DNA of 27,920 bases. It comes from a virus. Taxonomy: Duplodnaviria > Heunggongvirae > Uroviricota > Caudoviricetes. How positions within the stretch are numbered: the first letter of the stretch is position 1; each line of letters opens with the position of its first letter. Position numbers and translations under genes: made by a program. Of this stretch, positions 12,247-16,413 are shown piece after piece. The notes under the pieces were generated by a model. It was given only the letters and a program-made list of their open reading frames with translations. It ran no database searches and had not been told where the DNA came from. Location of the stretch: IMG/VR virus record IMGVR_UViG_3300045988_162894; one strand, 5' to 3'.

Positions 12247-12546
12247 AAAAATTCCTTAATACTGATAACTGGGCGCACTATACACACGTTCCTGAAGAAA
12301 GCTATAGTTTTTTGATGGGGGTGAAGATGGCTGGATGTCTAAAATAAACATTGCTTCATATGTTCAACTATGCGTTAATGATTGCGTCGGTTTGAAGAAC
12401 AGACGATATACGAAGTAGTTTACTAAAGCAGTTCTCATTTCAGGTGTTATTCACTTATTCCTTCTTTGAGTCTCTCCAATTAAGTACGAAGTCGTTTCTG
12501 TTATACAAGCCATTTATGCCGAAAGGCTCAAGTTAAGGAATGTAGA

Positions 12547-12762
12547 ATGTCAAATAAAATGACTGGTTTAGTAAAATGGTTTAACGCTGATAAAGGTTTC
12601 GGCTTTATTTCTCCTGTTGATGGTAGTAAAGATGTGTTTGTGCATTTTTCTGCGATTCAGAATGATAATTTTCGAACCTTATTTGAAGGTCAAAAGGTTA
12701 CCTTCTCTGTAGAGAGTGGTGCTAAAGGTCCTGCAGCAGCAAATGTCATAATTACTGATTAA
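12547..12762 (+). CDS. cspB: Cold-shock protein CspB-like (CspA family)
   Basis: 71 aa [38 protein letters not shown]...; AAGGA RBS. Confidence 0.8.
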
Positions 12763-13043
12763 AATTCATAGTTTGTCTGTATACGATAACGAAGAAGGCT
12801 GATGCCTGAGTGGAGATACAGACAGAGTGGTGAATATTGGATCTCTTTAATAAATAGTAAGGAGGTCCAATACATGAAACAATGGCCAGCATATTTGGCA
12901 ATAACTTAATCAGGAAAAGTATGCTAACCATTGTGGTGAAGTGCAGGTTTGCTGCATGAATAGTTTTACAGCAGAAGCTAACTGCTGGCATAGCAAAACA
13001 AAGTGCGTAAGTGGATGACTCCCACAAAAAGTACCACAATATT

Positions 13044-13125: not shown

Positions 13126-13296
13126 TCAAGCTACAGCTTTAAGATTTGTCTGGAATACTTTGTTGCAATGAGGGCAGATCAAAAGGGTACCTTTTTGTAC
13201 TCTTGAAAAACTGTGTTCTGACTCTTGGGTGCAGTTTGGGCAGGAACATTTAACGAGATAATTACGGCGTGATTTTGAGTCTTTACGTTCTGACAT
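13126..13296 (-). CDS. Small zinc-ribbon protein (two CxxC pairs), function unknown
   Basis: 56 aa from ATG 13296 with AGGAA RBS. Contains CSCPNC...CPHC. Confidence 0.45.
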   Translation of the reverse strand: MSERKDSKSRRNYLVKCSCPNCTQESEHSFSRVQKGTLLICPHCNKVFQTNLKAVA

Positions 13297-13514
13297 AGGC
13301 TTTTCCTGTATAAATGGCCGTATACAGTACACTAAATATGAAAACATATCTCGTATTATTATTTAATATATGATTTTCTTTTAAAATAATTACCCACATT
13401 TTTAATGTGTCTGTTTTTTAGCGCCGTTGAGAACAACGTTTGCTATAAAAACTAACCCATAGACTCCGATCTTTTCAAACATATTGCACCATCTGTGTAC
13501 ATCGGGGTGAGGAT

Positions 13515-13730
13515 ATGAAATCAATGGATAAGTTAACAACAGGTATCGCCTATGGCACATCGGCTGGTAATGCTGGTTTCTGGGCATTGCAGTTACTCGA
13601 TAAAGTAACTCCGTCACAGTGGGCTGCAATCGGTGTGCTGGGTAGTCTGGTTTTTGGCCTGCTGACGTATCTGACAAACCTTTATTTCAAGATTAAAGAA
13701 GACAGGCGTAAGGTTGCGAGAAGAGAGTAA
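13515..13730 (+). CDS. Class II pinholin, phage 21 S21-like, with dual-start motif (M-K-S-M)
   Basis: 71 aa closely matching recalled S21 ([17 protein letters not shown]...[13 protein letters not shown]...[15 protein letters not shown]). GGTGAGG RBS. Confidence 0.85.
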
Positions 13731-13734
13731 TCCA

Positions 13735-14286
13735 ATGACACAAGACTATGAACTGGTTGTGAAAGGAGTCCGCAATTTTGAGAATAAAGTGGCGGTAACT
13801 GTAGCCTTACGGGACAAAAAACGCTTTGACGGTGAAATTTTTGACCTGGACATCTCGCTGGACCGTGTTGAAGGTGCCGCGCTTGAGTTTTATGAGGCAG
13901 CAGCGAGAAGGAGCATCAGACAGGTCTTCCTGGATGTTGCTGCCGGGTTATGTGAAGGGGATGAGCTGTCGCCGGAAAAGCGCCCCGTAATTTTAGAGGC
14001 GCAGAATGTGTGGATAACCTACAAAGGAAAGCTACCGGGAAGAATTACTGGTTCTCTGAAGACGCCACCGACGGCATTGCGGTCAGAAAAAGATGATATT
14101 GAATCGCCCATTGAAAAACTGGAGGGCAGCGTCGCTGATCTGAATAAAAAATTGTCGGTGCTGATCCCTTCTGAAGATGAAAAAAAACGCCGCGATGAGC
14201 AGTTTGCGGCGTTTTACGATTATTGCATTGAAGTTACTCGCAGGAATTTTGTGAAGATTTTTGAGGAGGGTAAATCTCTTCAGTAA
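13735..14286 (+). CDS. Hypothetical protein between holin and endolysin (possibly YdfR/DUF1327-like)
   Basis: 183-aa ORF from ATG 13735 inside the lysis cassette. No family recognised by eye. Confidence 0.5.
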   Translation: MTQDYELVVKGVRNFENKVAVTVALRDKKRFDGEIFDLDISLDRVEGAALEFYEAAARRSIRQVFLDVAAGLCEGDELSPEKRPVILEAQNVWITYKGKLPGRITGSLKTPPTALRSEKDDIESPIEKLEGSVADLNKKLSVLIPSEDEKKRRDEQFAAFYDYCIEVTRRNFVKIFEEGKSLQ

Positions 14287-14494
14287 GCTTAATGGCGGAC
14301 GCTGCAATTAATTCAGGAAGGTCCGCAAGGTCATCTGTCAGTGGATATGATGAAAAATCGGCGGCAGTTCTGTTAAGAAGCGCTTTAACTAATTCCTTTT
14401 CCTTCTCCGGCAACAAGTTGATTAGAGCTACGACTGCTTGCCTGAGTGCGATTAAATCAGCAAAAGTTTGTTTTGGTAGATTTGTGTAATCCAT
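14234..14494 (-). CDS. Hypothetical antisense ORF overlapping the 3' end of 13735-14286
   Basis: 87 aa, helical-looking. AGAGG RBS 5 nt before ATG 14494. Opposite to late-operon direction; low confidence. Confidence 0.25.
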   Translation of the reverse strand: MDYTNLPKQTFADLIALRQAVVALINLLPEKEKELVKALLNRTAADFSSYPLTDDLADLPELIAASAIKLTEEIYPPQKSSQNSCE

Positions 14495-14607
14495 AGTCAC
14501 CTCTGTGTTTATCAGATTGACATCCTCCTCCCGCCAGTGCCCATCACTGGTGAGGTAAGATTTAACATATCCGGGGATTTGAAGCCGATAAATCCTGATA
14601 AATATCC

Positions 14608-15635
<1,028 letters not shown>

Positions 15636-15997
15636 ATTAATATTAAATCGGATTGTTTTTAGCGCTGAATGTGAAATTTAAATAAAAAGGACTCTTCCAT
15701 GAGTCAAAATCCTTGAAATCTTAAGGGTAAGATAAAAGGTCATTAGACAGAATGACACGTTTTATTAATAAATAAAGCTATTGTTTCATTCGTGTGTTTT
15801 TCTTTACAAAAGTAATCCTTGCTATGGTTGGTTAATCATGCGTTAATGGTGTTCTGGTTTGTTACAAAATTATCTGAAGCAGTCATTGTTATAATTTTAT
15901 TATTTGTACCTCTTGAGATTTCCTTGTTGGTTTTTCTCTCTGATATTTTTTTTCGGACCATTCGCCCAAGGGCTAACTTCTTCAAAAGGTAATAATG

Positions 15998-16210
15998 ATG
16001 TCTAACAAAATGACTGGTTTAGTGAAATGGTTTAACCCTGAAAAAGGTTTTGGTTTCATCACGCCGAAAGATGGTAGCAAAGATGTGTTTGTCCATTTCT
16101 CAGTTATTCAGAGCAACGATTTCAAAACGTTAACTGAGAATCAGGAAGTCGAATTTGGTATTGAGAACGGACCTAAAGGCCCCGCGGCTGTTCATGTAGT
16201 GGCACTTTGA
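15998..16210 (+). CDS. cspI: Cold-shock protein CspI-like (CspA family)
   Basis: [35 protein letters not shown]...; long AT-rich 5' leader typical of csp genes. Confidence 0.8.
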
Positions 16211-16413
16211 GGTAGAAAATATTACAAACCATATTCACTTTAGATGCCCGTGTTGCCATGGTTCTCAGTATAGAACATCATCTTTTGATGTTTCTGACAG
16301 GAATCCTTTCGGGGCAAAATGTATCTTTTGTAAATCAATGATGATTACATTTGATAATATTTCACAATACTTAAATGTTAGCCGTCTGTCGTTAGATTTA
16401 AGAAAGTGAAAAT

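Follow-up and report, generated by a model that had tools for sequence, protein, structure and literature searches.

In the late region of lambdoid phages, morons, in the definition of Hendrix and Juhala, are autonomous promoter-gene-terminator units, and bor of lambda is one of them. In pore-forming colicin operons, an immunity gene lies on the opposite strand between the colicin and lysis genes, and the immunity proteins are integral membrane proteins. The gene order of the Qin prophage of Escherichia coli K-12 is essQ-ydfR-rrrQ-rzpQ/rzoQ. All three are compared here with one locus, the holin-endolysin interval at positions 13735 to 14607 of a 27,920-nucleotide (nt) stretch of E. coli prophage DNA (IMG/VR record IMGVR_UViG_3300045988_162894, Caudoviricetes), which is called the window throughout. 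The interval holds a long ydfR allele coding for 183 amino acids (aa) on the plus strand and an 86-aa open reading frame (ORF) on the minus strand. Coordinates were taken from the ORF listing and the sequence. The favoured reading, given a probability of about 0.55, is that the ydfR slot of this cassette holds a long mosaic ydfR together with an autonomous antisense moron gene.

A literature search for functional data on the YdfR family gave one paper, from 2026, which reports from two-hybrid and pull-down experiments that RNase E is bound, at its N-terminal catalytic half, by residues 1-72 of K-12 YdfR, and that YdfR co-purifies with RNA (PMC13232886). In the library searched, no paper was found that mentions the 183-aa or the 86-aa protein of the window; both are already in public databases and in PHROGs as uncharacterised entries.

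The long ydfR allele

The interval is bounded upstream by a phage-21-type class II holin gene (13515-13730, plus strand; PF04971, E 7e-34; phrog_9876 and phrog_20), which is labelled essQ in near-identical genomes, and downstream by an rrrQ-like gene (14608-15141, plus strand; PF00959, E 3e-24; phrog_7 endolysin) for a lysozyme with a hydrophobic N-terminal segment like that of a signal-anchor-release (SAR) endolysin. With an Rz/Rz1 pair further downstream, these genes have the composition of a phage-21-type cassette, as a preliminary description of this DNA had recognized, and the endolysin is predicted to show SAR behaviour. The same description had correctly placed a 183-aa plus-strand ORF between holin and endolysin (13735-14286; ATG at 13735, stop at 14284-14286, beginning 4 nt past the holin stop), but it had left the ORF unassigned and had treated it as inserted between two genes that are normally close. 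The product is a YdfR protein: Pfam PF07041 (DUF1327) matches aa 1-112 with 144.9 bits against a gathering cut-off of 25 (E 9e-43), and the phrog_2091 profile spans the whole protein (aa 1-183, E 5e-111). Part of the holin-endolysin region is contained in 5153 of 5426 complete E. coli genomes, and the DUF1327 N-domain was found in 101 phage records, all of them E. coli lambdoid or Stx phages. Since ydfR is also present in Qin, a gene in this slot is the rule for this type of cassette and the 870-bp spacing is a long variant; ydfR is the usual occupant and not an insertion, and the expected closeness of holin and endolysin holds only in part. The outcome named beforehand as speaking against the preliminary description, a standard YdfR-like gene with an unconserved antisense ORF, was found by half: the plus ORF is YdfR-like but departs from the 103-aa standard, and the antisense ORF does show conservation.

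At the DNA level the N-domain (aa 1-112; 13735-14070, plus strand) is 88% identical, as far as 14070, to the short ydfR of phage 689R5, and the helical C-domain (about 67 aa, residues 117-183; 14083-14286, plus strand) is homologous to free-standing late genes of 67-73 aa. The single-domain form of about 100-116 aa, of the K-12, Tritos, 689R5 and BP-4795 type, is not matched by a 183-aa protein with an extra domain of about 67 aa. Homology to short ydfR loci stops at 14070 for 689R5, at 13940 for Tritos and at 14093 for Stx2 phage 86, and picks up again at 14581, 14598 and 14532, respectively. The DNA from 14134 to 14700 has 91% identity to a locus (P0038) with a free-standing pair of 67-aa and 86-aa genes. 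PhiR12_1 has a far more divergent DUF1327 N-domain, and its C-domain and antisense protein are about 85% and 91% identical to those of the window. In-frame fusions of DUF1327 and the helical domain have at least three forms (183, 169, and 243 aa). As judged from these alignments, ydfR is joined in frame, in the 183-aa ORF, to the forward gene of a helical/antisense module. Searched against Pfam, the helical domain gave sub-threshold matches of coiled-coil type alone, including SlyX (E 0.12).

K-12 YdfR occupies the same slot between an essQ-type holin and the rrrQ lysozyme, and residues 1-74 of the window protein are 85% identical to it, with divergence from about residue 75. However, K-12 YdfR has 103 aa and its stop overlaps the rrrQ start, while the window protein has 183 aa, ends in a helical domain, and is followed by a 321-nt gap before the endolysin gene, inside which the antisense gene lies; any link of the window protein to RNase E would extend from K-12 through the conservation of residues 1-74 only.

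Proteins of the ydfR slot are strongly mosaic. At L010 (1750-2391) the helical domain forms the N-terminus of a 213-aa protein with a C-terminus like that of Stx2 phage 86 orf5, and at L026 (1801-2592) it lies in the middle of a 263-aa DUF1327 protein.

The antisense gene

The minus ORF (14234-14494, PHROG 2572) begins with ATG at 14494 and stops at 14234-14236. It had been described as an 87-aa ORF; its existence is confirmed, but its length is 86 aa from the ATG or 88 aa from a GTG at 14500. The ribosome-binding site ascribed to it is present as a Shine-Dalgarno (SD) sequence, AGAGG, at 14500-14504 on the minus strand, 5 nt upstream of the ATG. The phrog_2572 profile matches the full length of the protein (aa 1-86 of 86, E 1e-53) and also the distant members P0020 and P0023, and the exact 86-aa sequence is public as a ‘hypothetical protein’ on at least 1000 contigs. 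Word-indexed searches returned near-identical E. coli copies only; relatives of 89-93 aa with 41-57% identity came from a profile search and from HMMER run exhaustively over 1.8 billion representatives. The family comes from E. coli, Salmonella, and metagenomes and forms three clades, across which the length of 86-93 aa, the start position, the SD sequence, and 20 invariant residues are kept.

Between clades, the proportion of synonymous differences (pS) is 0.57-0.70, which is near saturation, the ratio of nonsynonymous to synonymous change (dN/dS) is 0.21-0.29, and the minus ORF has zero stop codons. The wobble positions of the minus ORF coincide with those of a plus-strand shadow ORF, so dN/dS was compared in all six frames. 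In every deep comparison the minus ORF has the lowest value and is the sole frame without stops; the opposite, wobble-sharing frame has dN/dS of 0.35-0.51 and one or two stops. A count by codon position gave 11 of 18 variable sites at position 3 (p = 0.014), which does not tell these two frames apart and was given no weight. Because it is conserved and under purifying selection in these comparisons, the antisense ORF is judged to be a real gene. That it is instead a chance shadow ORF is effectively excluded: the family is narrow (Escherichia and Salmonella) and without a known domain, and the wobble-sharing frame is mostly open with lowish dN/dS, but no plus-strand gene covers 14287-14607, and a start, a length, and an SD sequence kept at such low identity, in the frame under the strongest constraint, are against it.

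The 86-aa protein is acidic (pI 4.6), and two AlphaFold2 models predict three helices (residues 8-26/27, 30-48, and 56-74) with a predicted local distance difference test score of 71-72. Its most hydrophobic 19-residue window is borderline (Kyte-Doolittle 1.62) and holds the invariant residues D13, R18, and Q19. Pfam gave only sub-threshold ABATE and DUF1823 matches, a PDB profile search and NCBIfam gave nothing, and Foldseek with the two models gave no PDB or BFVD match at E ≤ 0.001. Neither the 86-aa nor the 183-aa protein has a match at E ≤ 1 in PADLOC-DB, which covers anti-phage defence and toxin-antitoxin families. The DUF1823 label given to this gene in PhiR phage records is unsupported, with 13.2 bits against a cut-off of 25 and a best E of 0.024 over 12 family members. 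Similarity to a 975-aa TPR/CHAT protein (P0019) was judged to be spurious repeat-helix similarity. An Rfam match to GcvB (14179-14356, minus strand) has 18.1 bits, where the gathering score is 42, and E 0.84; it takes in the terminator and the 3' end of the antisense gene, is probably driven by the terminator, and was dismissed as chance.

The helical/antisense module occurs in about 294 of the 5426 complete E. coli genomes (about 5%), and its carriers include the pathogens CFT073, APEC O1, and S88. The antisense gene is present in phage 2H10, the PhiR phages, and CFT073, and absent from Tritos, 689R5, BP-4795, and K-12; many otherwise similar cassettes are without the module.

Disrupted copies of the antisense gene were also seen. 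E. coli 07_3337 (L006) has an IS3-family element inside the gene at the equivalent of about 14302, the ATG has become ATT at L008, and most of the gene is deleted in Salmonella (P0018). The antisense gene can thus be lost in resident prophages.

Pairing with the helical-domain gene

The two coding sequences of the window converge and overlap by 53 nt at their 3' ends (14234-14286, both strands), an overlap absent from the preliminary description. The segment that varies between cassettes, about 14071-14580, comprises the last 70 or so codons of the plus ORF and the antisense gene, and the two travel together. Their pairing occurs in several slots: between holin and the endolysin gene R, as either a fusion or a free-standing 67-aa gene; between Rz and terminase, as a 73-aa gene; and downstream of Q. 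In Stx-like E. coli prophages, the slot has no DUF1327 but a free-standing 67-aa gene (P0038; 393 contigs), which begins 4 nt past the holin stop and is convergent with the 86-aa gene, the overlap again being 53 nt. A 73-aa homologue in lambdoid prophages of Salmonella and in related metagenomic contigs lies directly after Rz and upstream of the small terminase gene, overlaps the Rz stop, and converges on a 93-aa antisense gene with a 59-nt overlap; the window C-domain aligns to this 73-aa gene in L011 and L015. The 53-nt overlap is also found in L002 and L030, and the 59-nt overlap in L011, L014, L017, and L020-23. The C-terminal segment is further fused in a 243-aa DUF1327 protein and in a 144-aa protein encoded downstream of Q.

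Similarity of the partner between clades is mostly confined to the last 45 or so residues. Within clades, its C-terminal region has dN/dS of 0.16-0.32 in its own frame, which indicates purifying selection. The antisense gene always overlaps a gene for the helical segment, by 53-59 nt, in at least three slots and in three clades. The helical domain is also found without the antisense gene, in Stx1_499 (263 aa), L010 (213 aa), and P0047.

Predicted terminator and conserved leader of the antisense gene

An intrinsic-terminator-like element was looked for directly downstream of the antisense gene, and one was found about 20 nt after the antisense stop, inside ydfR (14180-14215, minus strand; -14.6 kcal/mol). 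On the minus strand the hairpin reads AAAACGCCGC-N12-GCGGCGUUUUUUUU, with a 10-bp stem followed by U8. On the plus strand the same bases are ydfR codons 151-160, which encode KRRDEQFAAF, the most conserved motif of the helical domain. An 8-bp core of the hairpin is kept in all three clades, with a double change from G-C to A-U in clade C and a G-U wobble in L030.

On the other side of the gene, alignments, a pattern search, and a per-locus read-out delimit a conserved antisense leader of about 80 nt (14530-14609, minus strand) beside the endolysin start. It comprises a 25-nt block, ATGGATATTTATCAGGATTTATCGG (14585-14609), which contains a -35-like TTTATC (14587-14592); a -10-like TATGTT (14564-14569) after a 17-nt spacer; and a 5' hairpin, CCAGTG-N5-CACTGG (14534-14550), all on the minus strand. 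The 25-nt block is nearly invariant, with at most three substitutions, in eight loci from all clades, some of them without an adjacent endolysin. TATGTT, which is TATTGT in the Salmonella-type clade, stands at a fixed distance from the block, and the 17-nt spacer is kept. The leader is thus conserved across clades whose coding DNA is near saturation, and these features suggest that it may act as an antisense promoter, though a weak one.

The endolysin ATG at 14608 has no recognizable SD sequence and is preceded by the A/T-rich invariant block GATAAATCCTGATAAATATCC (14585-14607). Many phages keep this block in front of R, the exceptions being those whose ydfR stop runs into the R start (K-12, Tritos). 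It may be a translation initiation element of non-SD type, an antisense promoter, or both.

Other antisense ORFs at the ydfR-endolysin junction

Four further antisense ORFs were found just after ydfR, the first three listed here being in the holin-endolysin slot: orf6 of Stx2 phage 86 (L004; 104 aa, PHROG 1853), a 95-aa ORF in E. coli 2015C-3121 (L010; PHROG 10490), a 98-aa ORF in phage Evi (L027; PHROG 25324), and a 90-aa ORF in phiSTEC1575-Stx2k (L025; PHROG 2411), which is unrelated to the 86-aa family and whose locus has no adjacent SAR lysozyme and no leader block. Profile comparison of all four gave no link to the 86-aa family for three of them; no sequence relation to it could be detected for Stx2 phage 86 orf6 or for the Evi and L010 ORFs. 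The leader of about 80 nt nevertheless precedes these last three. Homology among the loci ends just past the 5' hairpin, and an SD sequence and ORF specific to each cargo follow about 45 nt on. The three ORFs are like the 86-aa gene in slot, orientation, leader, own SD sequence, and downstream hairpin, but lie clear of the gene upstream. A clear terminator of hairpin and U-run follows each of the Evi and L010 ORFs, and Stx2 phage 86 orf6 has a strong hairpin without a U-run. Because the same leader stands before three unrelated antisense ORFs, the ydfR-R junction has the look of a place where antisense cargo is exchanged.

Proposed organization and alternatives

The interval would then be the normal ydfR slot of a Qin/Stx-type lambdoid lysis cassette with two linked units. 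One is the long ydfR, which would have arisen by in-frame fusion of a DUF1327 N-domain to a helical protein of about 67 aa and would be transcribed from the late operon along with holin and endolysin. The other is the 86-aa gene, which would be an autonomous antisense transcription unit made up of a leader with a 5' hairpin, an SD sequence, the gene, and a terminator of hairpin and U8; the ydfR-R junction would be a site of antisense expression composed of leader, cargo, and terminator, with the 86-aa gene as one of the cargoes. Q-driven late transcription through the antisense gene, in the opposite sense, would counter its expression, and the 86-aa protein is most likely produced in the lysogen or soon after induction, while the late operon is silent. 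This timing, like any phenotype of the antisense unit, is proposed from the sequence.

Of the two roles suggested in the preliminary description, lysis regulator and moron, the first may or may not apply, and the second suits the antisense gene in its own SD sequence, its hairpin with U8, its presence or absence among phages, and its shared leader, with a promoter of its own as the conjectural part. Like lambda bor and other morons, it is a small accessory gene at the lysis cassette, opposed to late transcription, with its own SD sequence and terminator, and it is present or absent among otherwise similar phages. Unlike Bor, its product is predicted to be a cytoplasmic three-helix protein with no sequence or fold relation to Bor and no lipoprotein signal; the 3' end and terminator of the gene lie inside a late-operon coding sequence, and its expression in the lysogen is putative.

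Several points weigh against an autonomous moron. A consensus scan reported no sigma-70 site upstream of the antisense gene, and the proposed -35 element, TTTATC, matches the consensus at just three of six positions. The 25-nt block stands directly upstream of the endolysin ATG in loci without the antisense ORF, with the block only in 689R5 and the block and TATGTT in BP-4795, so part of its conservation may serve endolysin translation. The single compensatory change in the hairpin is not significant (71 of 500 shuffles reach its score), and the U-run is strong only in the E. coli-type clade and weak in the other two. As to function, the 86-aa protein has no significant match in Pfam, NCBIfam, PADLOC, PDB, or BFVD. 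A plain moron also leaves unexplained why the gene constantly overlaps and travels with a helical-domain gene.

That constant pairing, with the same C-terminal helical segment in every slot and clade, is what an effector and its cognate antagonist would show, the 86-aa protein binding and neutralizing the late helical protein until convergent transcription shuts the antagonist off at the onset of late transcription. The position of the partner, 4 nt after the holin stop or overlapping the Rz stop, would suit translational coupling, the partner is itself under purifying selection within clades, and the arrangement recalls pore-forming colicin operons, with their immunity gene on the opposite strand. 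As there, a small gene is wedged on the opposite strand between effector and lysis genes, its terminator lying at or inside the 3' end of the gene before it; but colicin immunity proteins are integral membrane proteins, the borderline hydrophobic window of the 86-aa protein holds invariant D, R, and Q residues, and the partner is a helical domain of about 67 aa, not a pore-forming one, so that with no homology found the comparison is an analogy only. Physical overlap and a terminator inside the partner's codons could explain the co-travel, the helical domain exists without the small gene in the three cases named above, strain 07_3337 retains the partner's C-terminal region at 98% DNA identity beside an IS3-disrupted small gene, and no PADLOC or toxin-antitoxin family was matched. 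Such a pair is possible but doubtful. The further proposal that the helical late protein and the opposite-strand 86-93-aa protein form a prophage switch, which would be flipped by Q-dependent convergent transcription and would act on lysis timing or host RNA decay, is rather unlikely.

The long ydfR could also be a non-functional recombination accident whose C-terminal extension is a tolerated read-through. The Prokaryotic Genome Annotation Pipeline (PGAP) often flags long ydfR as a pseudogene (‘incomplete; missing C-terminus’), in CFT073 and other genomes and at L001 and L006-L009, although the ORF is intact; the C-domain occurs as a separate gene elsewhere; and the window and PhiR12_1 C-domains have dN/dS of 0.49, a value which is uninformative since it comes from few changes and several other frames give 0.47-0.61. 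With the 183-aa ORF intact in 62 of 81 IMG/VR and genome loci, 499 public contigs, phage 2H10 among them, bearing the identical protein under the name ‘YdfR family protein’, several fusion forms, and a full-length PHROG profile, an accident is improbable. More improbable is a device at the RNA level, in which the minus transcript would be a cis-antisense RNA against the late S-ydfR-R mRNA and would adjust lysis timing or the ratio of holin to endolysin, for instance if RNase III cut the duplex, with the protein secondary. Such a transcript would be complementary throughout to a stretch of about 370 nt between ydfR and R in the late mRNA, both the hairpin and the 3'-3' overlap are conserved as nucleotide sequence, and clade C keeps the hairpin through its G-C to A-U change despite a change in partner residues (RR..AA to HH..VA). 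However, purifying selection at the protein level, the conserved start and length, and the SD sequence show that the protein itself matters, and an RNA-level role is less likely because of this constraint; moreover, the Salmonella-type module sits after Rz, where a cut in the late mRNA would not part holin from endolysin.

Neighbouring genes

Downstream of the endolysin gene lies an rzpQ-like gene for a DUF2514 Rz-like spanin (15138-15635, plus strand; PF10721, E 2e-38; phrog_312; compare K-12 rzpQ/rzoQ), and out of frame inside it is an ORF for an Rz1/rzoQ-like lipoprotein (15289-15585, plus strand; LTSCVPKQQ, proline-rich). The lysis cassette is flanked on both sides by cold-shock genes, as in K-12 Qin: a cspB-like gene at 12547-12762 and a cspI-like gene at 15995-16210. 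Both are led by full-length Rfam RF01766 5' untranslated regions of the cspA thermoregulator type, at 12386-12825 (plus strand, 158 bits) and 15841-16256 (plus strand, 114 bits). Just upstream of the holin, a 73-aa minus ORF with two CxxC pairs (13126-13347) is another small antisense gene of the late region; its counterpart in CFT073 is annotated ynfU, a putative zinc-binding protein.

Significance

Two annotations can be corrected: the pseudogene call repeatedly given to long ydfR, and the DUF1823 label that some phage records attach to the small antisense gene. At their ydfR-endolysin junction, Qin/Stx-type prophages appear to have an exchange site at which different antisense genes stand behind one conserved leader; one of them converges on the gene of a late helical protein, with an overlap that is fixed and conserved. 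If the pair is functionally coupled, it would add an extra regulatory layer to a well-studied lysis cassette, one tied to the binding of RNase E by YdfR.

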